A program made the position numbers and the translations under genes. DNA of 34,941 nt from a virus. Lineage: Duplodnaviria; Heunggongvirae; Uroviricota; Caudoviricetes. The stretch lies in the IMG/VR virus record IMGVR_UViG_2681813316_000026; one strand, written 5' to 3'. This document shows positions 1-34,941 of this stretch, in pieces (within the stretch, counting starts at the first letter, position 1; each line of letters begins with the position of its first letter). The notes below the pieces were generated by a model, which made no database searches, was not told the DNA's origin, and saw only the letters and a program-made list of their open reading frames with translations.

Positions 1-495
1 ATGCCATTTGCTCGTTATTTCTGCATTTTCATAAACGTTGGTTTGGGAGAAGGTGCTCCAGCTATTGGCGTTCCGTTCTTCTGGCCGTCCGCTGCAATGC
101 CAAATACTGTAATCGACAGCTGGTCCAGTATGGTGTTTTTGAAGTTCAACGGGGCGAAATTTTCTGCCTCTGATTACCCTGTGCTGGCGAAAGTGTTTCC
201 TTCACTGGTATTACCTGAAGCCCGCGGTGATTTCATTCGTATCTGGGATGATGGGCGAGGGGCGGACAGTGGGCGAGCATTATTAAGTTGGCAGGCAGCA
301 ACAGCTTTATCGCAATTTGGCGGTAATTATCCAGAAGGGTCCGGCCATTCGATTGATAATCACGATGGGATATCAGCACACCACCCAGGTTTCTCTCGAT
401 TTCAGTACACCAGTAACTCAGTAGGAGATGGGGTTAATTTTATTGCCGTCAGACCACGTAACATTGCATTTAACTTTCTGGTGAGGGCTAAATAA
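1..495 (+). CDS. Tail-fibre C-terminal variable segment, alternative copy (Sv'), currently in the silent orientation of the invertible cassette
   Basis: ORF on the strand opposite the fibre gene at 1490-2074. The crossover site at 26-51 lies inside its 5' end and encodes GLGEG, matching GFGEG at the junction in the expressed fibre. Bases 1-25 are the reverse complement of the pin-proximal flank at 31705-31729. Confidence 0.6.
   Translation: MPFARYFCIFINVGLGEGAPAIGVPFFWPSAAMPNTVIDSWSSMVFLKFNGAKFSASDYPVLAKVFPSLVLPEARGDFIRIWDDGRGADSGRALLSWQAATALSQFGGNYPEGSGHSIDNHDGISAHHPGFSRFQYTSNSVGDGVNFIAVRPRNIAFNFLVRAK
26..51. repeat. Invertase crossover site, right inverted repeat (gix/hix-like, 26 bp)
   Basis: Reverse complement reads TTCTCCCAAACCAACGTTTATGAAAA. 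Matches the site at 1772-1797 in inverted orientation and resembles recalled hix/gix sites with a central AA dinucleotide. Confidence 0.6.
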
Positions 496-1088
496 TGAAA
501 CCTGTTTTTGATGAAAATGGACTGGCTACAGTGCCGGGTGATATGCGTTGTTTTTATTATGATGCAGTAACGTATGAATATACGGGCTGGTCTGATGAAT
601 ATATTAATACTGGTGTAAGTATGCCCGCCTGTTCCACTGGTATTGACCCTGGCGAAAACATTCCGGGAAAAGCGGCTGTATTTACAGGTAAGGGATGGAG
701 CCATGAAGAGGACCATCGCAATGAGACTGTTTACTCAATCGAAAATGGCGCAGCTGTTACAGTGGGTTATATCGGTGCTATCAAAAACGGTTATGTCACG
801 CTTTCACCGTTAACGCCATATGATAAATGGGATGGTGAGAAATGGGTGACAGATACTGAGGCACAACACAGTGCCGCAGTAGAAGCGGCAGAAGCACAGC
901 GCCAGTCACTGATTGATGCAGCAATGGCTTCCATCAGTCTGATTCAGCTGAAATTACAGGCCGGACGGAAACTGACTCAGGCAGAAACAACCCGACTTAA
1001 CGCCGTGCTGGATTACATTGACGCGGTGACGGCAACAGATACCAGCACCGCGCCGGATGTCATCTGGCCTGAACTGCCGGAGGCGTAG
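495..1088 (+). CDS. Tail fibre assembly protein (Tfa/U' type), alternative copy
   Basis: Immediately follows the alternative fibre segment. Its 3' end overlaps the convergent tfa at 1060-1488, as in Mu G-segment U/U' pairs. C-terminal TSTAPD.IWP.LP motif is shared with the other Tfa. Confidence 0.7.
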
Positions 1089-4671: not shown

Positions 4672-5750
4672 CAGAACGGGTCCTCCTGTACTCTGGCTTT
4701 TTTCTTTTTCCGCGCGCCGGGGGCTTCGGGTTCAGGCAGATAAGCATCAGGCGGGCCGACACGGATTTCCGTCAGGGTGCCGTTCTGGTCCTGAGTAAAC
4801 GTGACTTCCGAAACAAGCAGTTCGGTATTGTCGAAACCACAGACCGGATCAAAGACAATCACCCGCTGGTTGGGCTGCCACAGCGTACCGTTACCCTGTC
4901 GCCAGCCCTGCACCACATAGGTGGTTTCATCCGTTCGCGCCGCCCGTTGCCGGGCTTCAAAGTCAGCACGCGCAATACAGCCAGCCCCCGTGGCCTGCCC
5001 TGTCTGCCTGATATACATCGGACGGTAACGGGCAATAAATGCGTCCTCTGTGCGGGCCCGCAGCGCGGTGGTGGTGGCCTCACCGAAATCATCGTCGTTT
5101 CCGGCACGCTGCCCCGCCACCTGGTAAACAGAAAACCGCTCCCGGATACTCTTCTCCGTATCGCAGGAAAGGATGTTTTCCCCGAGTACCAGCGCAGTAT
5201 GTGCCCGCGTTGAGCCAATACCACCAATCACCAGCCTGCCGTGCGGGTCGTCGTAAGCCAGTGCCTGCTGCTGACCGAGTATTTTGTTGATTACCTCAAT
5301 CACCGTTTCACCGTGATCGGGCTGGACGTCAGGAATAACACCCGACGGCGCACCGTTGTTCACCACCTCAATGCCGAAAGGCGCAGCAAGCGCCTGCGCA
5401 ATCTGTACCAGCGATCGTCCGTTAAACTGTGTCGGTTCGGCTGCACAGTCAATCAGGTCAGCAGTCAGACTACGTCCGGCAATACCGGTGCTGACCGAAC
5501 GGGCATCGTAACGAACGGGGGTCGCCTCCACCCAGCCGGTGATCACCAGCTCATCACCAATCAGCACTTCCACTTTTGAACCATTTTTAATGCGCGGCTG
5601 AAGCGTGGTGATACCCTCATCTCCCGGCCACTGGCGGGTGATCTCCACGCTGAAATCCCGCGCCAGCCGTTCAATACCGGCACCGATGCGCACCGATGTC
5701 CAGCCATTCCACTCCCGGCCATTTACCCGTAGCGTGACATTGTCGTTCAT
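4671..5750 (-). CDS. Mu P-like tail/baseplate hub protein (gp44 family)
   Basis: 359-aa ORF following the DNA-circularisation gene with a 4-bp overlap, as in the Mu N-P pair. Confidence 0.7.
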   Translation of the reverse strand: MNDNVTLRVNGREWNGWTSVRIGAGIERLARDFSVEITRQWPGDEGITTLQPRIKNGSKVEVLIGDELVITGWVEATPVRYDARSVSTGIAGRSLTADLIDCAAEPTQFNGRSLVQIAQALAAPFGIEVVNNGAPSGVIPDVQPDHGETVIEVINKILGQQQALAYDDPHGRLVIGGIGSTRAHTALVLGENILSCDTEKSIRERFSVYQVAGQRAGNDDDFGEATTTALRARTEDAFIARYRPMYIRQTGQATGAGCIARADFEARQRAARTDETTYVVQGWRQGNGTLWQPNQRVIVFDPVCGFDNTELLVSEVTFTQDQNGTLTEIRVGPPDAYLPEPEAPGARKKKKARVQEDPF

Positions 5751-7075
5751 TGCACTGGCACCTTCAGAGGGATCACCGGCACAAAGCCGGGATGCGTAAT
5801 GGCATTACGCCGGATAATGTCCGCGTCACGCGCCGCGTTATCAAACCAGGTCGCCGCCAGCACCAGCGCGGGTAAAACCTCATCCGGCGTGCGCTGAATG
5901 ATCCGAGCAGACTGTTCAAGGCGCGTGTTGATATCCGCATTCAGATCTGCTTTCACCCGGCGCAGCGCCAGAAACAGCGCATCACTGGTTGTACGGGACA
6001 ACTCCTTATCAATTGCCATATTCAGTGTGTCGCGAATGTCGGTCAGTTCTTCCCACGTTGGCAGGTCAACCGTGTTTTTCACCGCCGGTGCATTGTTCAG
6101 CACCGGATGCGTGACGGCAGGCCAGCCGGAGCTCTGCGCGGGTGTTGTTGACTGCCCCACTGCGGCATTCTGCATCACCGCAGAAGTTGTTGGCGCAGGC
6201 AATCGGGTAACGGCATACGCCGCTTCGCTGATTGCGGTCGTACGAAGGGTGCTGGCAACCACGTTACGCTGCTGCGTCGCCGTGGCGGTGGTTTTACTGT
6301 CCGTTTTCCAGACGCCGCGCGGTTGCAGATCGCTGCCGAGGCTGACACCGGAAAGCGTTTTGATCATGGTGACCAGGTCGCTGGCGTTACCATAAAGGCG
6401 TTTCCCGGTACGCCACATTTTCTGCACCTGCTCAACGAAATTTTTGCCTGACGATGGCGGCGGCAGAAGTACCGAGATATCCCCCTGCAACAGCCTGGCG
6501 GCATCCGATACGGCAGAATCCACCACTTTCATCGCATCAGAAACATACCCAAGCATTGTGCTGGCATTACCGACGACATCGTTCTGCACAAAATCTGCCA
6601 CGCCATCGATACTGAAACTACTGAAACTGTCACTGATGCAGTCATCCAGTGCAGAACAGGATGACATCAGCGTCTGCGCCGTCGCCGCACCTGATGTGGG
6701 GTAAGAGAGTTCTCCTGCTTCGACAAACTTCAGGTCAAAGCGGACAATACGCCCTTCACTTTTCGATGTGCTGACCCGAACTTCCCCGTCAACACAGACT
6801 TTCAGCTCACCATATGTCGGGTGGACAAGCGTGCCGGGACCGGGTTTATTCAGCGCTTCAATCAGGCGATCGCGCTGGTCAAAGCAGTCATCTCCCACCA
6901 CATAAGCTGTGATGGACGGGCGGAAAGTGACTTTTCCCAGATCTTCGGTATAGGGCTTGTCGCGGTTCGGGTATTCATGTGTTTCCACACGGCGACCAGT
7001 TCCCGCACTTTCTTCTTCAACCTTAAACGGCACACCTCGAAATGACGCATCCTGAAGCCTGTCTTTCCACGTCAT
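5747..7075 (-). CDS. DNA circularisation protein (Mu N / gp43-like)
   Basis: N-terminal region resembles the Mu N family. Probable true start is the ATG at 7075 (the track ORF begins at a GTG at 7081). A GGAG ribosome-binding site sits 7 nt upstream. Confidence 0.7.
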   Translation of the reverse strand: MTWKDRLQDASFRGVPFKVEEESAGTGRRVETHEYPNRDKPYTEDLGKVTFRPSITAYVVGDDCFDQRDRLIEALNKPGPGTLVHPTYGELKVCVDGEVRVSTSKSEGRIVRFDLKFVEAGELSYPTSGAATAQTLMSSCSALDDCISDSFSSFSIDGVADFVQNDVVGNASTMLGYVSDAMKVVDSAVSDAARLLQGDISVLLPPPSSGKNFVEQVQKMWRTGKRLYGNASDLVTMIKTLSGVSLGSDLQPRGVWKTDSKTTATATQQRNVVASTLRTTAISEAAYAVTRLPAPTTSAVMQNAAVGQSTTPAQSSGWPAVTHPVLNNAPAVKNTVDLPTWEELTDIRDTLNMAIDKELSRTTSDALFLALRRVKADLNADINTRLEQSARIIQRTPDEVLPALVLAATWFDNAARDADIIRRNAITHPGFVPVIPLKVPVQ

Positions 7076-7085
7076 ATACACTCCG

Positions 7086-7116
7086 AAAATAAAAAAGCCA
7101 CCTATTAGAAGGTGGC
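7086..7116 (-). terminator. Rho-independent terminator closing the moron transcription unit
   Basis: Minus-strand hairpin GCCACC-N8-GGTGGC followed by TTTTTTATTTT, 20 nt downstream of the 7137-7667 stop and abutting the RBS of the next tail gene. Confidence 0.6.
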
Positions 7117-7136
7117 CTTGTAATGAATTTTATTAA

Positions 7137-7667
7137 TTAGCGAGTCAGAAACAACGAATCTTTATACTTTTGCTGTTGTTCATTTAAATACTTAGCTGTT
7201 TCATCGCTGGCAAATGGAAATATTACCGTATTTTTAGGCATGGTAATTTCTTTTTTGTCCAGCGTCAGAGTAAACATAGGAACATACTGAGCAGAGTAAC
7301 GCACCGCAGAAACGAGCTCTAGTTTAGACTCTTCAATAACACTTAAATTATCCAGGCTAACTTTCTCTTCATCTTTTTTCTTTGACGCATTTAAAGTTTT
7401 TATTACTTTATTTAATTTCTCCTGAAAATCCTCCTTAAAGTTTTCAGGATTGCCGTCGACAACAAGAATCTGTTCACCCTGATTATCTGGAAAAATAATC
7501 TTTGCACTTATCAATTTATTTTCTTTATAAACATCACCAAGTTTTATGGCTCCTCCAGATAACTGAATAATATGTTCATCTTTAAAGGAGATGTTGCCAG
7601 AGATTATGAGAGATGAAAAAATAGCCGCTGCTCCAAGAATTACACTTGCTGTGATATAGCCTTTCAT
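7137..7667 (-). CDS. Moron: AT-rich gene for a signal-peptide or membrane-anchored protein of unknown function
   Basis: 176-aa ORF with a hydrophobic N-terminus (MKGYITASVILGAAAIFSSLIISG) and a lysine/glutamate-rich body. GC content is visibly lower than the flanking tail genes. Has its own AT-rich upstream region and its own terminator. Confidence 0.6.
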   Translation of the reverse strand: MKGYITASVILGAAAIFSSLIISGNISFKDEHIIQLSGGAIKLGDVYKENKLISAKIIFPDNQGEQILVVDGNPENFKEDFQEKLNKVIKTLNASKKKDEEKVSLDNLSVIEESKLELVSAVRYSAQYVPMFTLTLDKKEITMPKNTVIFPFASDETAKYLNEQQQKYKDSLFLTR

Positions 7668-7758
7668 TTTTCGCCTATTAACATTTTTCTAAATGTGCAT
7701 TAATTCTATCACTCTATTTATGACTTACAACCAGCAATACATGTGAGGGGAATCCTGG

Positions 7759-9591
7759 CTACCAAAATCGGGTATAGCCAACATCGTGATTTATATCAAT
7801 GCCACTGGAGCGTGTTTCCGTAACCCGCATACCTGGTGGCATATTTATAAATGATACCTTGATCTCACCATCAACTTTTGGCGCGGTAGCTTTATTAATC
7901 ATGAAGGGATTCGAGCCTGTGGCATCGGAGGCGTTGTTTGCCTGAGCCGGATCCACCGCCGGATAAGGAGTGTATCCCCGTGCCGGTATTCCCGTCCCAT
8001 AAGCATCATAAGCACCCGCGCCCCACTGCGCAGAGTTAATGGCATCGACCGTGTCACCGGAACTGTCGGTAAACCACTCAATAATCGGCTTCAGCTTGTC
8101 CCACATATCCTGAAACCACTTAACAACCGGCCCCCAGTTATTGATCACCATCCCCATCGGCGACCAGGCAAAAACTTTCTTAAGGAGTTCCCAGCCAGCC
8201 TCAAAATAAGGACCAATGGTTTCCCAGAGCTTCTTGAAATAAGGTCCGACAACATCCCAGTTAGTGATAATTAATCCCGCAGCCAGGGCTATCGCCGTCG
8301 CAATCATGCCAATCGGCGTCATCGACATGATCCTGCTGACAATGCTGATGGCACTGCCCACGCCCATCAATCCCAGTTTCAGAATCGCAAGACCGGCAGC
8401 AAGCCCGACGACGCCGCGAATAACCCGGGGATTTTCATCCGCAAACTTCGTGAATTTTTCCCCCAACTCCCCCAGCCATTGCGTGATATTTTTGGCGTCA
8501 CCAGAAAATGCGCCGCCAATAGCCGCAAGGCCGTTAGTTGCGGTCCCCGTCATTGCCTCCCACAGGTTGGACAGCGTACCAAGCTGTGCCTGAACACGTT
8601 TATTCAGGCTGGCCTGTTTATTCATCTTTTGCTGGATCTGATCGTAACCATCCTTTCCTTTATCGATCAGCGCATTGACCACCTGAAGGGTTTCGGCATC
8701 ATCACCAAATATTGCCTTAAGTACACCTGTTCGCTTAACGTCGGTAAGTTTTCGCAGCTTTGCCAGTTGCTTAAACATGTTATCAAGACCGCCAAAACTT
8801 CCTTTGCCGTCAGTAAAATCGAGCTGTACCCCGAGTTTCTGACGGGCCATAACTTTATTGACGTCCCTGATTTTCTTAACGCTTAATCCGGACTGGATAA
8901 CTTTTCGCAGGGCATTACCTGCCGACTCCCCGTTCATCCCCATCTGATCCATCATGACGCTGATGGGGGCAAGGCTCTGTGCAGCCTGAAGACCGTCCTT
9001 GTTCACCATCTTCAGAACAGAACTGGTTTTAGTGAAGAAGGACAACATGTTGGTATCGTCAACGCCCAGATAAAACGCCTTCTGGATAGTGTCGAACAGC
9101 CCCATCATGTCTTCTGACGCCGTTCCGGTAGCATCCTGCATCTTTGCAGCAAACTCAGCAGCCGCTTCCGGTGTTTTTTTCAGTTGTACCGCAAGATAAG
9201 CTGTCGCTTTACCCACACCGCCAAGAATATTTTCTGCCGGGATCCCCTGACGCACCAGCATCTGCATCATGTTCTGGAAATCAGCCGTTGTACCGGGTAG
9301 CTGGTTACCCAGGCCAATAGCCAGTTTATTGATGTCCTGAAAGCTCTTTCCGACCTCGCCGTTCGCATCCATCATGGCGACTTTCAGCCCGGTGGCGGCG
9401 TTTTCCTGATCGGCATAAGATTTCAGGGAAAGCGTCAGACCCGCTGCCAGTCCGCCACCAAGCGCCAGCCCACCCTGTGATGCTTCTTCCGCCTGGCGTT
9501 TAAATCCCCGGATTTTCTTTTGCATTTTCGACAGCGCGGGAGAAAGTCTGTCGACACCGGTGATCAACGCCTTAAGCTCAAATTCAGCCAT
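7759..9591 (-). CDS. Tail tape measure protein
   Basis: 610-aa ORF immediately after the frameshifted chaperone pair, with Gly/Ala-rich hydrophobic stretches typical of tape measure proteins. Confidence 0.85.
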   Translation of the reverse strand: MAEFELKALITGVDRLSPALSKMQKKIRGFKRQAEEASQGGLALGGGLAAGLTLSLKSYADQENAATGLKVAMMDANGEVGKSFQDINKLAIGLGNQLPGTTADFQNMMQMLVRQGIPAENILGGVGKATAYLAVQLKKTPEAAAEFAAKMQDATGTASEDMMGLFDTIQKAFYLGVDDTNMLSFFTKTSSVLKMVNKDGLQAAQSLAPISVMMDQMGMNGESAGNALRKVIQSGLSVKKIRDVNKVMARQKLGVQLDFTDGKGSFGGLDNMFKQLAKLRKLTDVKRTGVLKAIFGDDAETLQVVNALIDKGKDGYDQIQQKMNKQASLNKRVQAQLGTLSNLWEAMTGTATNGLAAIGGAFSGDAKNITQWLGELGEKFTKFADENPRVIRGVVGLAAGLAILKLGLMGVGSAISIVSRIMSMTPIGMIATAIALAAGLIITNWDVVGPYFKKLWETIGPYFEAGWELLKKVFAWSPMGMVINNWGPVVKWFQDMWDKLKPIIEWFTDSSGDTVDAINSAQWGAGAYDAYGTGIPARGYTPYPAVDPAQANNASDATGSNPFMINKATAPKVDGEIKVSFINMPPGMRVTETRSSGIDINHDVGYTRFW

Positions 9592-20021: not shown

Positions 20022-20071
20022 TAATGCTTCCCTTTAAGTTATTACGATGGAACAGACCATAGAAATGGCAA

Positions 20072-20094
20072 TAAAAAACCGCCCGGAGGCGGTT
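20072..20094 (-). terminator. Rho-independent terminator
   Basis: Minus-strand hairpin CCGCC-N4-GGCGG followed by TTTTTTTAT, between the 20114-20434 moron and the HNH gene. Confidence 0.55.
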
Positions 20095-20113
20095 CAATTA
20101 TCATCTCGATAAA

Positions 20114-20434
20114 CTAAATCAGATCACCAATGTATTTTGCACTAATTGAAATTTGCATCTGAGGCATTCCGACCACAGATCCATTTAACAGGTAATCACG
20201 TCCTCGTTCCTGCAAAGAAAGACTCAATTCAAAGTTCTTTACCCCAGGGAAAACCGAGGTGACATTTAAATCATGCTGCGATACGCGCAGAATAAGTTGG
20301 CTACCGTCAATTTTTCCCTGATACGTAAAACCAAAATCTCCGCCGTTTACTGCATTGTTTTTGACAACTACGGTACCATTACCAAAATCACGTTGATTGC
20401 TTCTGAAAACAACAAAATAGATACCATCTTTCAT
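20114..20434 (-). CDS. Moron: small AT-rich hypothetical protein downstream of the lysis cassette
   Basis: 106-aa ORF with an ATG start, low GC, and its own terminator. Confidence 0.5.
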   Translation of the reverse strand: MKDGIYFVVFRSNQRDFGNGTVVVKNNAVNGGDFGFTYQGKIDGSQLILRVSQHDLNVTSVFPGVKNFELSLSLQERGRDYLLNGSVVGMPQMQISISAKYIGDLI

Positions 20435-20526
20435 GTGTAAAGCCCTTTAAAAGAGTCACCAAAATCAGGTGCTTTGTATCTATTGGGCCATCACATATCA
20501 AATCAAGGAACAAAACAAAGTTAACA

Positions 20527-20796
20527 TCATTTTTTTTGCATGATGTGACCACGCTCAACTTCAATCCTTCTGATGTCAGCTTTATCGGTATTACACTGCG
20601 CCAATGCAGACAACAAGGCGACATTCAGATCTAAGCTCGAGCCCCACGTAAAATGATCAGGTAAATCAGGCTGAGGGGTTTCAGCCGTCAGGCTGGCTGG
20701 TAACGGAACTACCGGAACCTGGACGTAAACTGTTCGCGTACTTCCGCAACCGGTCAGCAGCGGCAGCAGGCACAGGACGTGAAGCACAATCATCAT
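20527..20796 (-). CDS. o-spanin (Rz1-like outer-membrane lipoprotein)
   Basis: Starts in the +1 frame inside the Rz gene (MMIVLHVLCLLPLLTGC, lipobox LTGC) and is proline-rich. Extends past the Rz stop. Confidence 0.55.
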   Translation of the reverse strand: MMIVLHVLCLLPLLTGCGSTRTVYVQVPVVPLPASLTAETPQPDLPDHFTWGSSLDLNVALLSALAQCNTDKADIRRIEVERGHIMQKK

Positions 20797-21073
20797 CCGC
20801 AACAGCCACTTTGATATCTTCCTGGGTTCTCTGTGACTCCAGTGCGATCTGCTGTTTTGCATGTTGATTCGCCTCCTGAATGATGTTCGTTATTGCCATA
20901 GTACGCAGAACATTCGCGGTGATAGCCTCAGTAGAATCAGCTCGCTGTTCCGCAGCATCAGCACGCTTCTGCTCCTCCAGAAACTTTCCATGATAGTGAT
21001 TCGCTGACCAGACAAGACCACCAGCGACACAAGCAATAAACGTTAAAATGAGCGCCCAATAACTCATCTTCAT
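20681..21073 (-). CDS. i-spanin (Rz-like)
   Basis: N-terminal transmembrane helix followed by a charged coiled-coil body. Follows the endolysin with a 4-bp overlap. Confidence 0.65.
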   Translation of the reverse strand: MKMSYWALILTFIACVAGGLVWSANHYHGKFLEEQKRADAAEQRADSTEAITANVLRTMAITNIIQEANQHAKQQIALESQRTQEDIKVAVADDDCASRPVPAAAADRLRKYANSLRPGSGSSVTSQPDG

Positions 21074-21684
21074 ACCAGCAGCGCCGCCCGCGCCTTGTTG
21101 TATCGGACCTTACGATCCTCAATACCGTTCAAACCGCCGTTAATGATGCGCGTAACACGGTTAATATCGGCACCGTAGATCATGCAACCTTTAGAGGTGT
21201 AGAACCATGCAGCTGAGCGCGCAGCCTGTAGTTCCTGTTCCAGTTGTTCAGGTGAAGTCACCAGATCTAACTTCAGCGCCGCGCCACAGATGCGATAATT
21301 ATGGAGGCCAGTGATTTGAATTAATCCTCTACCACGATATTTCCAGCCATCACCTGGTGCTTTGTTACCCAGTCGGTTGCTATACACCAGATTGGCAATA
21401 GCATCCTGACGAGCTGCATGTCCGGATGTTCTGCCAAGGGCATCAGCCTGCTGCTGTGTGATCCTCTTTCCGAACGTCGCCACAAGCGCAGATGGTGTGT
21501 AGTTAAGATTTTCAACTACGGCGCTAAACCCCATCGACTCATGGCCTACCTGAGCGATAAACATTGCCTGATCCGCTGGTGCTGTAATGCCGAATTCCTT
21601 CATCGCCGCATCAATGTGCGGAAACCAGCGCGCAGCCAGCCCGGCGCTAATACCAGCCGCCTTTTGAAATAATTGTTGGTTCAT
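21070..21684 (-). CDS. Endolysin, glycoside hydrolase family 19 (chitinase-like lysozyme)
   Basis: FIAQVGHESMGF and GRGLIQITGLHNY motifs. Confidence 0.8.
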   Translation of the reverse strand: MNQQLFQKAAGISAGLAARWFPHIDAAMKEFGITAPADQAMFIAQVGHESMGFSAVVENLNYTPSALVATFGKRITQQQADALGRTSGHAARQDAIANLVYSNRLGNKAPGDGWKYRGRGLIQITGLHNYRICGAALKLDLVTSPEQLEQELQAARSAAWFYTSKGCMIYGADINRVTRIINGGLNGIEDRKVRYNKARAALLV

Positions 21685-22338: not shown

Positions 22339-22382
22339 TTAGCCCCCTCTTAATTGCTGTTGGTCCTCTCAGAACGAGGGGA

Positions 22383-22410
22383 AACAAAAAAGGCCGCATT
22401 AAGGCGGCCT
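22383..22410 (-). terminator. Rho-independent terminator after the Q-S moron
   Basis: Minus-strand hairpin AGGCCGCC-TTAAT-GCGGCCT followed by TTTTTTG, 19 nt downstream of the 22429 stop. Confidence 0.6.
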
Positions 22411-22428
22411 TGGTAAGGTATAGTTTTT

Positions 22429-23025
22429 TTAAGATAAACTTTGATTGATATACTCATGACACCCAAAAATAAAGGCGTTTTGTGCATCAATAAATGACTT
22501 TTTTTCTTCCGGAGTAAAATACCCTTTTGTAAAACATACTTTTAGCGCTTTTTGAAGATCTGCCGTCAGGGTTATCAACTTACAACCTTCCTCATCAGGC
22601 CTTATTAATAGAAGTAATTTATTTTTACTTATTTCAGCGGCCTTTATTGGAACTTGAATCTCCTCAGGGAAAACACCCTTAGCCAATATATCCATATTCT
22701 TATTTCCGACCAGATGCCATTGCTCAAATGTGCTGGCCAACATAATTACGTCTGTCACATGCTCAGCGCCAGCAAAACGTATTTGTTGCGCCAATTCTTT
22801 ATTAGTATTCAAGTGAGCCTGTAATGTGGCTAAGGCAAAATTTTCTTTGATTGCCCTGTATGCAACCCAACCAGTTATTCCTGCGGCAATAACGCCTGCA
22901 AGAGCAGTAATGAGTGTTTCAAAAGGAAAGGAAGAACTGATTTCAATTGGCGGTAATTTTTCTATTACCAAGGTCAACTCGCCAGTAGTTTTTTCGAAAG
23001 CGTACGGTACGTTTTGCCAAGTCAT
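22429..23025 (-). CDS. Moron: single-pass membrane protein of unknown function between the Q-like gene and the holin
   Basis: 198-aa ORF with ATG at 23025 and an AGGAGG ribosome-binding site. One predicted TM helix (LITALAGVIAAGITGWVAYRAI). AT-rich, flanked by terminators on both sides. Confidence 0.6.
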   Translation of the reverse strand: MTWQNVPYAFEKTTGELTLVIEKLPPIEISSSFPFETLITALAGVIAAGITGWVAYRAIKENFALATLQAHLNTNKELAQQIRFAGAEHVTDVIMLASTFEQWHLVGNKNMDILAKGVFPEEIQVPIKAAEISKNKLLLLIRPDEEGCKLITLTADLQKALKVCFTKGYFTPEEKKSFIDAQNAFIFGCHEYINQSLS

Positions 23026-23131: not shown

Positions 23132-23710
23132 TTAAGCACTTTCTTGCTCACTCTGCAACTTAAATCTGTCGCTATTTGTGCCGAATGCGTCACAAACTGG
23201 AGCGTACAGGATCGATTCTGCAAGACTTAGCCAAGTGTCAATGCGTCGACGACAGGTGATCAGCGGCCAGTCAGGATGTTTAGCCTGCAGTTCATTGGCC
23301 ATCTGCAACTTGCTCTTACGAAGACGATACCGGTCAACAATCACGCTATAGAGCGATCGGTAGTCATCATTCATCAGTACTGAAGCAATGACACCGTCCA
23401 CTAACAACCCTTCTTCATCTGAACAGAACGCCAGGCCGCTTTTATTTTTGCTGTTGAGAATTTCACGCAGGTACGCTTCAAGTTCAGGCTTGGTGATACC
23501 CGCTATCTTCATCCGGCGTAGCGCTTCATTGATAGCTGTCTTGGTGATTTTCCCGGATGCCAGAAGCTGGTTAAACATGTTTCCACCACTACCACCGCCG
23601 ATATAAGACCAGCGGCCCCACATGCGCAACTTGCCTTGTATCCAGATACTTTCCAGAGTACGAAGGCGAACCATTTCACCTGATTTGCCAACTTCAGAAG
23701 GATTAATCAT
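23132..23710 (-). CDS. Putative late-gene antiterminator (Q-like)
   Basis: 192-aa ORF, last gene of the nin-like block and immediately upstream of a terminator and the lysis genes. Assigned mainly by position. Confidence 0.45.
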   Translation of the reverse strand: MINPSEVGKSGEMVRLRTLESIWIQGKLRMWGRWSYIGGGSGGNMFNQLLASGKITKTAINEALRRMKIAGITKPELEAYLREILNSKNKSGLAFCSDEEGLLVDGVIASVLMNDDYRSLYSVIVDRYRLRKSKLQMANELQAKHPDWPLITCRRRIDTWLSLAESILYAPVCDAFGTNSDRFKLQSEQESA

Positions 23711-29568: not shown

Positions 29569-30243
29569 ATGAAAACAATCCATGACATCCGGCGGTCTAA
29601 CGCCAGAAAACTGAGAGATGGTGTTGGCGGGAATTCTTCCTTTGCCACTATGATTGATCGCGAGCCAACCCAGACCAGCAGGTTTATGGGAGATGGTGCT
29701 ACTAAAAATATCGGTGACAGCATGGCACGACACATCGAAAAATGTTTCGACCTGCCTGTCGGATGGCTCGATCAAGAACACCAGACAACGAACATCACAA
29801 AAAAACCTGATGTTTCAATCACTAATAAACAAATCACATTAGTCCCTGTCATATCATGGGTACAGGCCGGAGCATGGAAAGAAGTTGGATATTCTGAGGT
29901 TGATTTGAGCACAGCAGAAACGTATCCCTGCCCTGTACCCTGTGGGGAAATGACTTATATCTTGCGGGTGATAGGTGATTCAATGATTGATGAGTACCGC
30001 CCGGGAGACATGATTTTTGTCGATCCTGAAGTACCTGCCTGCCACGGTGACGACGTTATTGCATTGATGCACGATACAGGTGAAACCACCTTCAAAAGGT
30101 TGATAGAAGATGGGACACAGCGTTATCTCAAAGCGTTAAACCCAAACTGGCCTGAGCCTTACATTAAGATCAACGGTAATTGCTCTATAATTGGTACAGT
30201 GATTTTCTCAGGAAAACCAAGAAGATACAAAATCAAAGCCTAA
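29569..30243 (+). CDS. CI-type repressor (HTH domain plus S24 LexA-like autopeptidase domain)
   Basis: 224 aa. C-terminal domain with the GDSM serine motif and a downstream lysine. Divergent from the cro-like gene. Confidence 0.85.
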   Translation: MKTIHDIRRSNARKLRDGVGGNSSFATMIDREPTQTSRFMGDGATKNIGDSMARHIEKCFDLPVGWLDQEHQTTNITKKPDVSITNKQITLVPVISWVQAGAWKEVGYSEVDLSTAETYPCPVPCGEMTYILRVIGDSMIDEYRPGDMIFVDPEVPACHGDDVIALMHDTGETTFKRLIEDGTQRYLKALNPNWPEPYIKINGNCSIIGTVIFSGKPRRYKIKA

Positions 30244-30712: not shown

Positions 30713-30875
30713 TTTTTTCAGGTAACTCGTCGGCATCGCAGAAACAACAACGCTCGATCATGTTGAAAGCCGATTCGTAGAACTGTTTCTGCTGAGTGTC
30801 GCTGAGACAGGAAAAGAGCGACGTTACGATGATTTTATTAATTGCATTATCAAGTTCTTTTTCATCAAAAGTCAT
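30630..30875 (-). CDS. Hypothetical small acidic protein, convergent with the PL-like transcript
   Basis: 81-aa ORF with ATG at 30875 and an AAGGA ribosome-binding site. Contains a CCFC motif. Confidence 0.4.
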   Translation of the reverse strand: MTFDEKELDNAINKIIVTSLFSCLSDTQQKQFYESAFNMIERCCFCDADELPEKIRKQLADALRVRLSDQFSEMCSPNLDK

Positions 30876-31126
30876 TTGATTTTCCTTTTATGTATACGGG
30901 CTTAAAAGGATACCACCGAGCCTGAAGTGGTGAAAAGACAGGCACATAACAGCTAAGTATTTTCAACCAAAGAGAATCCTTAGCGTTGTGGTGAATGCGG
31001 CTCAGCGCACGCGGGTTAAGGTTGAGGCTGACAGTCGACCTTCTGTGGATACCCACCCGCCTGGTGTGCAACCTTCGCCAGGCACCGGGAGGCACCCGGC
31101 ACCACAACTTTATGCTGTGTGTAGTC

Positions 31127-31395
31127 ATTTCACTGTCAGCTTTTTCCCGTAATTGGGATTTTTTAACTTCAGCAATAGCTATTAATTCCTTTTTGGTCGG
31201 CTGAGGAATATCTATCAGTGCTGGTTTTCCATTCAGTGTTCCAATCTGTTTTCCTGGTGGAATATCCATAAATAACTTTTTATGTTCTTCCTCACTGACT
31301 ATTACACCATCATCAGGCCACAGACCTGATGCCTCAAATTTTTCTTTCTCCGATATGGGGAAAAAGCCATTTGCTTTAGCGCTCCATACGTACAT
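31127..31395 (-). pseudogene. Truncated tail fibre assembly gene (5' 269 bp only)
   Basis: Near-identical to 1220-1488. Homology stops at 31127; the track ORF 30865-31395 continues into unrelated sequence with a non-protein-like tail. Confidence 0.65.
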
Positions 31396-31396
31396 A

Positions 31397-31732
31397 TCAA
31401 TACCCCACCGCTATAATGTCCACATTAAATCCCCCGGGACCTGCCTGCCAGATGCTGGCCCCTGTTAATGATTTTGTTTGATGAACAACCGCCACATTTG
31501 CTGGCGATAGTGTTTCAGTTGTTACAGTACCGATATCATTCCAGTTAATTGAGATGGAATAGTTCGTTGTTGTAAACGACCGGGGGAAAGTTATGTGTCT
31601 TGCATTGGTGCCAACAGGAAATCCAAGATAAACACGCTGAATTATCATTCCTCCAGGTAACATAACCCAGTTAGCACCTTCTCCAAAACCAACGTTTATG
31701 AAAATGCAGAAATAACGAGCAAATGGCATCAT
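31397..31732 (-). CDS. Tail-fibre variable C-terminal segment, duplicate of 1490-1785, joined to the pin-proximal flank
   Basis: Residues after the GFGEG crossover junction are identical to the expressed fibre at 1490-1785. The first 13 codons derive from the pin flank. Confidence 0.6.
   Translation of the reverse strand: MMPFARYFCIFINVGFGEGANWVMLPGGMIIQRVYLGFPVGTNARHITFPRSFTTTNYSISINWNDIGTVTTETLSPANVAVVHQTKSLTGASIWQAGPGGFNVDIIAVGY
31679..31704. repeat. Recombinant (hybrid) crossover site
   Basis: TTCTCCAAAACCAACGTTTATGAAAA: left half identical to the site at 1772-1797, right half to the inverted site at 26-51, i.e. the product expected from invertase-mediated exchange. Confidence 0.6.
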
Positions 31733-31758
31733 TCCTGCTTTTGTCAGAGGGATCCACT

Positions 31759-32313
31759 ATGCTTATTGGCTATGTACGCGTATCAACAAATGACCAGAAC
31801 ACCGATCTACAACGTAATGCGTTGAACTGTGCAGGATGTGAGCTGATTTTTGAAGACAAGATAAGCGGTACAAAGTCCGACAGACCAGGACTGAAAAAGC
31901 TGCTCAGGACATTATCGGCAGGTGACACGCTGGTGGTCTGGAAACTGGACCGACTGGGACGCAGTATGCGGCATCTTGTCGTGCTGGTGGAGGAGTTGCG
32001 CGAACGAGGCATCAACTTTCGTAGTCTGACGGATTCAATTGATACCAGTACCCCAATGGGGCGCTTTTTCTTTCATGTGATGGGTGCCCTGGCTGAAATG
32101 GAGCGTGAACTGATTGTTGAACGAACAAAAGCTGGACTGGAAGCAGCTCGCGCACAGGGACGAATTGGTGGACGTCGCCCCAAACTTACACCAGAACAAT
32201 GGGAGCAGGCTGGACGATTAATTGCATCAGGCGTTCCTCGCCAGAAGGTGGCGATCATCTATGATGTTGGTATATCGACACTGTATAAGAAGTTTCCGGT
32301 CGGAGATAAATGA
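31759..32313 (+). CDS. pin: Serine DNA invertase of the Pin/Gin/Hin family
   Basis: Starts MLIGYVRVSTNDQNTDLQRNAL (catalytic serine in the YVRVS motif), with a C-terminal HTH. About 184 aa, GAGGGA ribosome-binding site, directly adjacent to the crossover site. Confidence 0.9.
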   Translation: MLIGYVRVSTNDQNTDLQRNALNCAGCELIFEDKISGTKSDRPGLKKLLRTLSAGDTLVVWKLDRLGRSMRHLVVLVEELRERGINFRSLTDSIDTSTPMGRFFFHVMGALAEMERELIVERTKAGLEAARAQGRIGGRRPKLTPEQWEQAGRLIASGVPRQKVAIIYDVGISTLYKKFPVGDK

Positions 32314-32373: not shown

Positions 32374-33243
<870 letters not shown>

Positions 33244-33387: not shown

Positions 33388-33961
33388 ACTTTATCAATGA
33401 CTTATCTCCCGACTTCCCGCCTTGCTTTTCCTAAACAGAACAATCGTAGAATATTCTTGAAGGGTTAGATCGTCACTGTTTTCTGTTCGATACTGTGACA
33501 TTCAGCACTTGATTCGCTATGGATCTGACAGGAAGATTTCGAGCGAAAATCTGCAGTTATTCAGTCGTTTTCTTATCGGTCACCATTATTCTTTTAGACA
33601 TTGATCCTACAAAGCTGCCGCAAAGTTGGTGGTGGGAACTGAAGTTGCGTAGAGAAGGGGTCAATACCCGGAGGCAAACATGGGCTGGCAAAAGTGTAGC
33701 GGTATTAGGCGCAGCTATTTAGCCTAGTTATGTTTTATGAAAACTTGATATCATATAAGTGTCTTACTTATTGGCTGTAAATAAGTTTTTCCTAAGGAAT
33801 TGTTTCTTGAATATCATTTGTAACTGTAACGGAATTTATAATCCTTTGCTTTATTGTTACGGTATTTTTTATCACACCCTATTTTTAGTGGTTTTTTATA
33901 CTGAAGTTTGGCAAAGTGAACTTTATATACATATACTTCATCCTGGTTTCAGTTAAATTGG

Positions 33962-34714
33962 GTGGATGATATGGCAACTACATGTTCAGTTATATTGATT
34001 TTGGAGTCCTTTGATGTTTATTTCGGAAAAGAGAGTGTGTTTCTGGAGAGAGGTTCATCTGTACTTGTCGACTCTAGCTCTAGAGATTTTTTCCTGACAT
34101 ATCCTGAAAGAGTGATAGTGGCGGATTTTGGCGCTGAGTTTATTAGTCGCTATTTGAAAGCTAATAACTTAAGGGATATTTCTGATTGTAGGGAATATCC
34201 ATCTTATTTAAAAATAAACTTTGCTGACTTCAGTTTAATTAAAGGATTAATTAGTTGGGCTAATCACTGTGCTGAATACATAGAAATTTTTGATGAGTCT
34301 ATTGCTTTTACATGTCTCTCTGCATTTTCTTCTGAAAAACAATTTGGAGTATTTCTGTTTGGATGTTTGAAAAGCACAGGGGCTAAAGTTAAAACGATTA
34401 TTCATACGGATTTATCTGCACCATGGCGTCTTAAGGATATATCATCAAGATTATATCTCAGCGAAAGTTTACTAAAGAGGAAATTGAAAGAAGAGGGGGT
34501 ATCATTCAGTAAGATCATACTTGATGAGAGGATGCAAATGGCTGAATATTTACTCAGCACTCGTTGTTATCCTATTAGTAAAGTAGCTAAGGTCTGTGGT
34601 TATGCCAGTGTCTCATACTTTACTTATGTATTTAGACGTTATTTTGGTGTTTCTCCAAGTCAATACTCTCAGAGGAGTTCAGAAAGTAAAATTCTTACTC
34701 ACCAGGGAATCTGA
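33962..34714 (+). CDS. AraC-family transcriptional regulator (AppY/GadX-like architecture)
   Basis: 250 aa with a C-terminal AraC-type HTH (ISKVAKVCGYASVSYFTYVFRRYFGVSPSQY). Strongly AT-rich gene and upstream region. Confidence 0.7.
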   Translation: MDDMATTCSVILILESFDVYFGKESVFLERGSSVLVDSSSRDFFLTYPERVIVADFGAEFISRYLKANNLRDISDCREYPSYLKINFADFSLIKGLISWANHCAEYIEIFDESIAFTCLSAFSSEKQFGVFLFGCLKSTGAKVKTIIHTDLSAPWRLKDISSRLYLSESLLKRKLKEEGVSFSKIILDERMQMAEYLLSTRCYPISKVAKVCGYASVSYFTYVFRRYFGVSPSQYSQRSSESKILTHQGI

Positions 34715-34755
34715 TCATTGTTCTTGCCCCCTTATTTCCAGACAGGGGGTGTATC

Positions 34756-34941
34756 TTAAGTTAACGTTACCCGCTGACGTCGATATTCTCGCAGAGAGCG
34801 ATAACCCAACGCACTGTGCGGATGGTTTTCATTGTAATGTTCGATCGCCACTGCAAGATTATGCAATGCCGTTCTTACATTCGGTTTCGGCATGAACGCG
34901 ATGTAGTCTTCCTTCATCGTTTTCACGAACCTTTCTGCCAT
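34756..34941 (-). mobile_element. IS-element transposase fragment (C-terminal end of a DDE integrase-core domain)
   Basis: 61-aa ORF ending ...[18 protein letters not shown], resembling the C-terminus of IS3-type transposases. The rest of the transposase is not in the window. Confidence 0.5.

Follow-up and report, generated by a model that had tools for sequence, protein, structure and literature searches.

In phage HK97, a moron beside the tape measure gene encodes gp15, which becomes embedded in the inner membrane and keeps phage DNA out of the cell; its specificity is tied to the tail region of the infecting phage (Cumby et al. 2012, summarised in PMC3594210). The gene considered here is an open reading frame (ORF) of 176 amino acids (aa) in the tail operon of a Caudoviricetes sequence of 34,941 nucleotides (nt; IMG/VR record IMGVR_UViG_2681813316_000026), which we refer to in its full length as the window. 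Like this gene, that of gp15 is a single-gene moron in the tail operon, adjoins the gene of the tape measure protein (TMP) and has its own terminator after it; the products share a membrane-spanning or export segment at the N-terminus, predicted in the window protein, and related phages lack the gene. The two differ in size (62 aa in gp15 versus 176 aa), in placement (upstream of the TMP gene in a siphophage, downstream of it in the Mu-like myophage tail module of the window) and in build, as the window protein, unlike gp15, consists mostly of a folded domain of about 150 aa that is predicted to be periplasmic. For gp15 an entry block after adsorption has been demonstrated, whereas the same function is only proposed for the window protein.

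The Sim protein of phage P1 (SimC, 264 aa), a superimmunity protein, is exported from the prophage-carrying cell's cytoplasm, processed and periplasmic, and blocks infection after adsorption. It is encoded in a three-gene sim operon that adjoins the tail genes, with pmgC, tub and sit as neighbours, whereas the window gene is a single-gene moron. T5 Llp, phi80/N15 Cor and Streptococcus TP-J34 Ltp are envelope-tethered lipoproteins that prevent phage entry; Ltp is reported to target TMP-dependent injection (PMC3952083). The window protein differs from them in having no lipobox, while its likeness to them lies in the only relative of its predicted fold that we found, a lipoprotein of lytic Pseudomonas phages. 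It may work like the gp15, Sim and Llp class and is at least built like it, but it belongs to none of the three.

The defence hotspots of P2 and P4 (Rousset et al. 2022, PMC9122126) resemble the slot described below in that a fixed junction receives interchangeable, unrelated cargo across Escherichia coli. The slot differs from them in lying within a tail operon and in that none of the five cargos seen in it is a cytoplasmic nuclease or abortive-infection system, all being envelope proteins of small size. Tab of JBD26 and the Tai systems are late-operon morons directed against tail proteins, acting on assembly in the cytoplasm (PMC10884400). A tail-assembly blocker of this type was rejected because those proteins act in the cytoplasm and the window protein is predicted to be exported. 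A spanin or other lysis gene was rejected because the lysis cassette lies elsewhere, at 20530-21684, away from the cargo ORF.

The TMP-N junction is a hotspot for unrelated envelope-protein genes

Lambdoid regulation, a Mu-like tail and membership of the SfV/SfII/SfI group characterise the window, an E. coli prophage the late genes of which lie on the minus strand. The features of the slot between the TMP gene and the Mu N-like gene (gene N) are listed below, (-) marking the minus strand.

7759-9591 (-): TMP gene, 610 aa, upstream flank of the slot (PF10145, PhageMin_Tail, E 1.1e-26)
7668-7758 (-): AT-rich region of 91 nt from the TMP stop (TAG 7761-7759) to the cargo start, guanine-cytosine (GC) content 0.341
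7137-7667 (-): cargo ORF, 176 aa, ATG at 7667-7665 and TAA at 7139-7137
7596-7667 (-): predicted N-terminal export signal, codons 1-24, MKGYITASVILGAAAIFSSLIISG, a Sec signal peptide or signal-anchor helix (from the AlphaFold helix and family hydrophobicity)
7140-7595 (-): predicted periplasmic alpha/beta domain, codons 25-176 (from a 57-sequence alignment and the AF2 model)
7086-7119 (-): intrinsic terminator, a 10-base-pair stem with a 6-nt loop at 7119-7094 and a U-run to 7086 (terminator scan and folding)
7084-7081 (-): ribosome-binding site (RBS) GGAG of gene N (sequence reading)
5747-7075 (-): gene N, Mu N-like DNA-circulation gene, 442 aa, downstream flank, ATG at 7075-7073 (PF07157, DNA_circ_N, E 3.6e-34)

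An earlier reading made from the letters alone (the sequence-only reading) had described an AT-rich ORF of 176 aa with an AT-rich upstream region between the tape measure and Mu N-like genes. Both points hold: the ORF has 34% GC in a tail module of 51-58%, region 7668-7758 also has 34%, and Pfam confirms the neighbours. Annotations of SfII, SKA5 and RefSeq E. coli likewise name the gene at 7759-9591 (-) tape measure.

When 6500-8400 was compared with deposited phages by Megablast, both flanks in SfII, SfI, SfV and vB_EcoM-689R6 proved 94-95% identical to the window, with a matched span of 1281 nt instead of 1901 nt and without the insert. Measured from anchor to anchor, the TMP-N distance is 104 nt in SfII versus 724 nt in the window. 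In phage SKA5, where the span equals that of the window, the slot holds an unrelated ORF of 170 aa (BLASTP E 2.9 against the window protein). Near-identical flanks without the insert in SfV, SfII and SfI mean that the cargo gene is a moron and not a part of the virion; that plaque-forming relatives do without the gene likewise argues that its product is not a virion component. The moron proposed in the sequence-only reading is thus borne out by the absence of the gene from these four phages and by its replacement with unrelated cargo in SKA5 and other E. coli prophages. Morons in the definition of Juhala and Hendrix are extra DNA of deviant composition with its own promoter and terminator, expressed from the repressed prophage (PMC3594210). 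Three of these five features were found here: extra DNA between adjacent genes, deviant composition and an own terminator. The 'moron' of phage SfIV in the literature was rejected as a counterpart, being another locus between Q and the lysis genes.

The flanks were matched in 1096 of 5426 complete E. coli genomes, 170 of which have the full window version, and the insert alone was present at 99-100% identity in 179 of the 5426. Among the sampled E. coli junctions the majority are empty sites. Sampling of other size classes of these junctions gave three further cargo types beside those of the window and SKA5, so that at least five unrelated cargos occur in all (site variants compared: the window site and loci L001, L002 and L022-L026). 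Those other than the window gene are as follows.

SKA5-type cargo: 170 aa, same strand, classical signal peptide (...FNLAA/EE), 85 genomes
OB-fold cargo: 148 aa, tRNA_anti-like with an N-terminal transmembrane anchor, opposite strand, 72 genomes
Lipoprotein cargo: 225 aa, lipobox LLGG/C, 55 genomes
Two-segment cargo: 145 aa, two hydrophobic transmembrane-like segments, opposite strand

With 31-42% GC, all five cargos of the slot are AT-rich; each encodes an envelope protein, and none was matched by PADLOC. The TMP-N junction of SfV-like prophages is therefore a cargo hotspot with interchangeable, unrelated genes for envelope proteins. Both the hotspot and the protein family of the window gene are previously undescribed, while tail-operon morons with a membrane protein as product are already known.

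The cargo protein is predicted to be exported

The N-terminus of the window protein consists of MK followed by GYITASVILGAAAIFSSLIISG, an uncharged stretch of 26 residues. An uncharged hydrophobic stretch (median 22 aa) is present at the N-terminus of 56 of the 57 aligned family members, with K or R before it in 54 of the 57. With a net charge of +2.0 ahead of the stretch and -0.6 behind it, the charge balance predicts an N-in/C-out orientation in 53 of the 56. The segment ends in small residues (S23 in 32 and G or A24 in 33 of the 57), compatible with cleavage by signal peptidase I, and the UniRef label of one Leclercia ortholog is 'Secreted protein'. The window protein is on these grounds predicted to be exported, either secreted or anchored by its N-terminus, in agreement with the secreted or membrane-anchored product that had been read from its N-terminus. 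The lipobox that the sequence-only reading wanted checked is absent, since the whole window protein is devoid of cysteine, and a lipoprotein was rejected for that reason. A conserved lipobox was not found in the family either, with a chance match in only two of the 57 members.

Family and predicted fold of the cargo protein

The protein (accession WP_000679479.1) is found in about 3% of complete E. coli genomes, and a literature search by this accession found no paper. A word-indexed search returned close relatives only (E. coli, and Leclercia, Lelliottia and metagenomes at 52-59% identity). A HMMER profile search of 1.84 billion cluster representatives gave 79 clusters at E < 1e-3, the complete members of which have nearly all 166-203 aa and match end to end. 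In the alignment of 57 sequences, G44 and Y124 are invariant, and the family motifs are [KQ]-[DN]-[EQ]-[NH]-[VI], just past the hydrophobic segment, G-x-[VI]-[KR]-L-G-x-V-Y-x-E and Y-x-S-E-x-x-P-x-F-x-L. The protein matches PHROG 5485, a family of unknown function, over positions 1-176 of 176 (E 3.8e-108), which gives a label but no function. Pfam gave only isolated chance-level matches for the window protein and the 57 family members, and a profile search against PDB sequences gave no match. The window protein, P0041 and P0057 had no tblastn match in 50,697 deposited phage genomes, and a scan of IMG/VR with P0066 gave none.

AlphaFold models reached a predicted local distance difference test (pLDDT) value of 64 with a shallow alignment, and of 92 with a predicted TM-score (pTM) of 0.77 when the 57-sequence alignment was used. 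In the latter model a helix (2-23) and a linker are followed by strands within 33-72, a helix (74-93), a long hairpin (114-143) and a final helix (149-171). Neither a fold relative of this confident model in PDB nor an enzyme-like fold match was found. Foldseek against viral models gave one significant match (E 6.4e-7, TM-score 0.66 on the target), a protein of 144 aa from the lytic Pseudomonas phage ventosus. This protein is named lipoprotein in UniProt and has a lipobox (LLTG/C); its gene (MG018930 51995-52429 (-), L028 1995-2429) lies in the early/middle gene block of a 97-kb genome. An hhalign comparison of the window family with it covers 132 columns (E 7.8e-5, probability 62%) and aligns the G/C of the lipobox with G24/N25 of the window protein. 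Relatives of the ventosus lipoprotein were detected in three other Pseudomonas phages (UAVern, Bitten and vB_PF_Y1-MI). Judging from the models, no fold relative of the window protein other than the ventosus lipoprotein was found, and the alpha/beta domain of about 150 residues is probably a previously undescribed fold.

The family occurs as phage moron, island cargo and integron cassette

Homologs in the same slot, between TMP and N genes, were found in Citrobacter (59% identity), Leclercia (53%), Edwardsiella (41%) and a metagenomic Mu-like module (31-33%); the same-slot loci compared with window 7137-7667 were L003, L020, L112, L114, L116 and L117. Among 80 IMG/VR loci, 78 have the gene in this slot and the remaining two are contig ends.

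Other settings are more diverse. In a myophage of the E217/PhiTE type, a same-strand homolog of 30% identity has a hub-like gene on one side and the central spike gene on the other; in another element a homolog of 23% identity is convergent to a TMP_3 gene. A Pantoea prophage carries the gene in an accessory region between lysis and early genes, and one family copy lies in an integrase/SRAP region. In Pseudomonas/marine contigs (L014-L017) the homolog (L014 9001-9534) is part of an island of about 11 kb that encodes two serine recombinases and a Mrr_cat nuclease and splits an FKBP gene. An unrelated ORF of 180 aa just upstream of the family member in this island was rejected as its paralog because it gave no hidden Markov model match, and paralogs were absent from every family locus examined. 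A member with 22% identity on the Vibrio parahaemolyticus contig LHQW01000005.1 (L034 2047-2838) is a chromosomal integron cassette: nine attC-like repeats of about 120 nt (TAACAAA...GCGTTA) set all ORFs of the contig apart from one another, the homolog being flanked by two of these repeats. One and the same family thus serves as phage moron, island cargo and integron cassette. These varied contexts show that the gene works alone, moves by several routes and is not bound to the assembly of one phage.

The AT-rich composition of the cargo gene is old

The cargo ORF has a GC content of 0.343 and a GC content at third codon positions (GC3) of 0.30, compared with 0.51-0.59 and 0.56-0.66 in the adjacent genes. 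The whole unit 7086-7758 (673 nt) has 33.7% GC versus 51.2% for the window (z = -2.7 against all 500-nt segments) and is one of four low-GC islands in it. The shift between cargo gene and neighbours is repeated in five other phage contexts. Same-slot orthologs keep 34-35% GC (about 0.34) and a GC3 of about 0.30, 15-20 points under their flanks, with neighbours at 0.51-0.60. The identities of cargo protein, TMP and N to their window counterparts are 59/75/71, 55/77/69, 53/35/68, 41/44/68 and 33/37/43%, and the cargo protein diverges faster than N in every lineage compared.

Since the cargo gene, together with its phage module, has diverged to as little as 33% identity and is still AT-rich, its low GC content is not a sign of recent transfer. 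By these comparisons it is an old resident of the slot that stayed AT-rich. The word 'inserted' in the sequence-only reading suggests something recent, to which same-slot orthologs at 59, 53, 41 and 33% identity run counter. Selection for silencing or regulation may be one reason why the AT-richness was kept. Such long persistence bears on how accessory genes stay silent and are retained nonetheless.

Terminator and expression signals

The hairpin at 7119-7094 (-) has 10 pairs and a folding energy of -15.6 kcal/mol (z = -3.6; 0 of 200 shuffles fold as well). Its U-run stops at 7086, 1 nt ahead of the GGAG of gene N at 7084-7081, so the terminator does end on the RBS of the next gene, as had been noticed from the letters. 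Equivalent hairpins with other stems and the same T-run were found in the empty site of SfII, in SKA5, at L024 and L026 and in Leclercia. All same-strand variants of the site share the T-run, the RBS and ATGACGTGGAAAGA, each same-strand cargo having a distinct hairpin stem joined to the conserved T-run and RBS. For opposite-strand cargos the terminator is placed between cargo and TMP instead. The empty SfII site has its own, smaller annotated terminator hairpin after the TMP stop and before gene N. A terminator directly before gene N is therefore a shared property of the site and not of the window insert only. That the terminator is the insert's own can be upheld for the stem of the 7119-7094 hairpin, which is specific to the window cargo; as to its position, the empty SfII site also has a hairpin before N.

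The sole promoter-like match in 7668-7758 combines a -35 box TTGTAA, a spacer of 16 nt and a TG-extended -10 box TAGAAT at 7730-7703 (9 of 12 positions). In the L020 ortholog (31-33% identity), which starts 28 nt after TMP without a terminator, one promoter-like match lies inside the 3' end of the TMP gene. As the cargo gene shares its strand with the late operon and follows the Q antiterminator gene, it should be transcribed late by read-through, with or without a promoter of its own. Two cargos of the slot lie on the opposite strand, where the late promoter cannot express them, and they provide what we regard as the best indirect evidence for independently expressed cargo in the slot. A weak AGG Shine-Dalgarno sequence lies 6 nt ahead of the cargo ATG. 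There is also an upstream ORF of six codons at 7684-7664 (-), ATG TTA ATA GGC GAA AAA TGA, the stop of which overlaps the cargo start (ATGA); this overlap may be due to chance.

Possible function of the cargo protein

The window gene is best explained as a single-gene moron, a mobile accessory cassette in the permissive TMP-N junction of a SfV/SfII-like, Q-antiterminated E. coli prophage. It would be expressed by late-operon read-through, possibly with the help of a weak promoter of its own. The product would be made with an N-terminal Sec signal or anchor that puts the domain of about 150 residues in the periplasm, where it would stay bound to the inner membrane or, after cleavage at about G24/N25, be set free. 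In the cell envelope, both in the lysogen and during lytic infection, we propose that it would stop incoming related phages after adsorption by acting on their ejected tail-tip, tape-measure or N proteins or on the channel formed by them, a superinfection exclusion of the kind known from HK97 gp15, P1 Sim and T4 Imm/Sp. Exclusion at the entry step by a periplasm-facing protein, analogous and not homologous to HK97 gp15, is our tentative choice, which we put somewhat short of an even chance; the periplasmic location, the expression in the lysogen and the exclusion function are each what we infer.

Several observations point towards exclusion. Every cargo of the slot is an envelope protein, the family recurs beside genes for ejected tail-tip proteins in two unrelated tail types, and its neighbour in the island is a restriction-type nuclease. 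The relatives in lytic phages are lipoproteins with genes in an early/middle block, a placement shared by the exclusion genes imm and sp of T4 and llp of T5. The faster evolution of the cargo gene relative to N in every lineage also speaks for exclusion, and HK97 gp15, an entry-blocking moron next to a tape measure gene, is the closest precedent. The sequence-only reading had suggested, by analogy, a block to superinfecting DNA or a modification of the envelope, and these observations make such a role more plausible.

Other observations weigh against exclusion. A promoter scan of 6500-8300 gave 3 sites versus 2.5 +/- 1.6 in shuffled sequences, so an own promoter is not above chance, and the same type of scan gave no match upstream of the Leclercia ortholog, so the match at 7730-7703 is not conserved. 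Exclusion by a prophage, on the other hand, would require expression in the lysogen. The independent transcription unit of the sequence-only reading is not supported by these scans, and its terminator is part of an architecture common to the site. Comparison of the 57-sequence alignment by hhalign revealed no homology with HK97 gp15 (probability 0.2%, E 0.32) or with P1 SimC (probability 0.3%). NCBIfam and PADLOC scans of the window protein and the 57 members gave nothing meaningful, with no PADLOC-DB 2.0 match at E <= 1. From its sequence, the N-terminal segment could be either a cleaved signal (at about G24/N25) or an inner-membrane anchor. In part of the family the gene is remote from all tail genes, and the slot may serve merely as a tolerated gap with a terminator, in which case the proximity to TMP would be without functional meaning.

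Lysogenic-conversion cargo would fill such a permissive gap with a protein that benefits the host through an envelope function unrelated to phages, for instance stress tolerance, adhesion or serum resistance (compare lambda Bor and Lom). We consider this unlikely, although the moron hallmarks and the exported product would suit it, the slot is a generic cargo site and several homologs lie outside tail modules. Many characterised morons do give their hosts envelope or fitness functions of this kind (PMC3594210). A host-fitness factor would, however, be of little use to a lytic phage, and the lytic-phage relatives argue against a virulence role in animal hosts. The spread of the family over enterics, Vibrio, Pseudomonas/marine bacteria, Pantoea and lytic Pseudomonas phages likewise makes niche-specific virulence unlikely, and the protein has neither a lipobox nor beta-barrel features for a place in the outer membrane. 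Quite unlikely in our estimate is an accessory of the phage's own lytic growth that is made late only and does not protect the lysogen, whether by masking receptors or debris like T5 Llp or by tuning lysis or the envelope. Integron-cassette and non-phage-island homologs cannot serve a phage lytic cycle, two alternative slot cargos are transcribed against the late operon, and SfV, SfII and SfI dispense with the gene. What speaks for a late accessory is that the gene lies on the same strand within the Q-dependent late operon, that the promoter is not convincing, that the gaps are short in some orthologs (L020, 28 nt after TMP and without terminator) and that relatives occur in lytic phages.

An orphan immunity or inhibitor protein, travelling as a mobile single gene and acting in the periplasm against a toxin or lysin (an effector of a type VI secretion system or a bacteriocin, or a peptidoglycan hydrolase), appears improbable. 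A cognate effector gene adjoins the family member in none of the contexts examined, and the recurrent placement by TMP, hub and spike genes would be unexplained unless the target were a tail-borne lysin, in which case this explanation merges with exclusion at entry. Small size, predicted export, the mobility of the gene on its own among phages, islands and an integron, and the lack of an enzyme-like fold match would all fit such a protein. That the protein takes part in tail structure or assembly and was overlooked by annotation is very improbable. Its position in the tail block, kept down to 33% identity, might by itself suggest such a role, but the gene is absent from isolated phages with near-identical tail genes, most sampled sites are empty, homologs occur outside phages, and no deposited phage genome encodes the window protein. 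An N-terminal export signal would also be incompatible with tail assembly in the cytoplasm. The sequence-only reading had named a structural tail component as the contrary outcome, and the plaque-forming relatives without the gene, together with the export signal, speak against it.

Exclusion at entry can be extended to the whole family. The window protein would then be the founding member of a widespread family of single-gene, periplasmic anti-entry defences of a new fold that recognise the ejected proteins (tape measure, N, hub or spike) of contractile-tailed phages and travel as tail-operon morons, integrative islands and integron cassettes. The TMP-N junction of SfV-like prophages would be a dedicated hotspot for interchangeable exclusion genes that act at the envelope, and AT-richness would reflect lysogen-specific regulation. 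We entertain this extension as a doubtful if real possibility.

A moron for a membrane protein in a tail operon is in itself unsurprising; what is new are the family, its predicted fold, the hotspot of envelope cargo and the persistent AT-richness. WP_000679479.1 is a concrete candidate from an unannotated family with a confident model of unmatched fold. At the slot, roughly one in three SfV-like prophages has a gene for an envelope protein, drawn from at least five unrelated ones, which makes it a compact panel for finding entry-level phage exclusion in E. coli and Shigella, with relevance to host range in phage therapy and to the spread of serotype-converting phages.

Other features of the prophage

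Upstream of the TMP gene lie the genes for tail assembly chaperone, tube and sheath, and downstream of gene N those for homologs of Mu P, gp45, gp46, baseplate J and gp48. Two regulatory genes were identified by Pfam scan.

23135-23710 (-): Q antiterminator gene
29569-30240 (+): cI-like repressor gene

A second low-GC island (38%) at 22351-23000 corresponds to an ORF of 198 aa at 22429-23025 (-) without a Pfam match, which sits between the Q antiterminator and the lysis genes, a classical moron position. The third island, at 20051-20600, adjoins the Rz1-like LysC gene; its ORF at 20114-20434 (-), 106 aa, has a borderline match to GrlR, a negative regulator of type III secretion (26.7 bits versus a cut-off of 26.8). 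Past the cI-like gene, at 30865-32313, we detected a tail-fibre assembly gene, a C-terminal tail-fibre fragment and a Pin-like invertase (Resolvase and HTH_7). At the other end of the window (1-1088), plus-strand fibre-assembly genes face minus-strand fibre and assembly genes at 1060-2074, and the arrangement at 30865-32313 and 1-2074 looks like invertible tail-fibre segments. The stretch with the lowest GC content of the window (32%), 33401-34850, contains an ORF for an AraC-family regulator (33962-34714 (+)) that adjoins a GIY-YIG-domain ORF at 32374-33198 (-); this stretch lies probably outside the prophage core.

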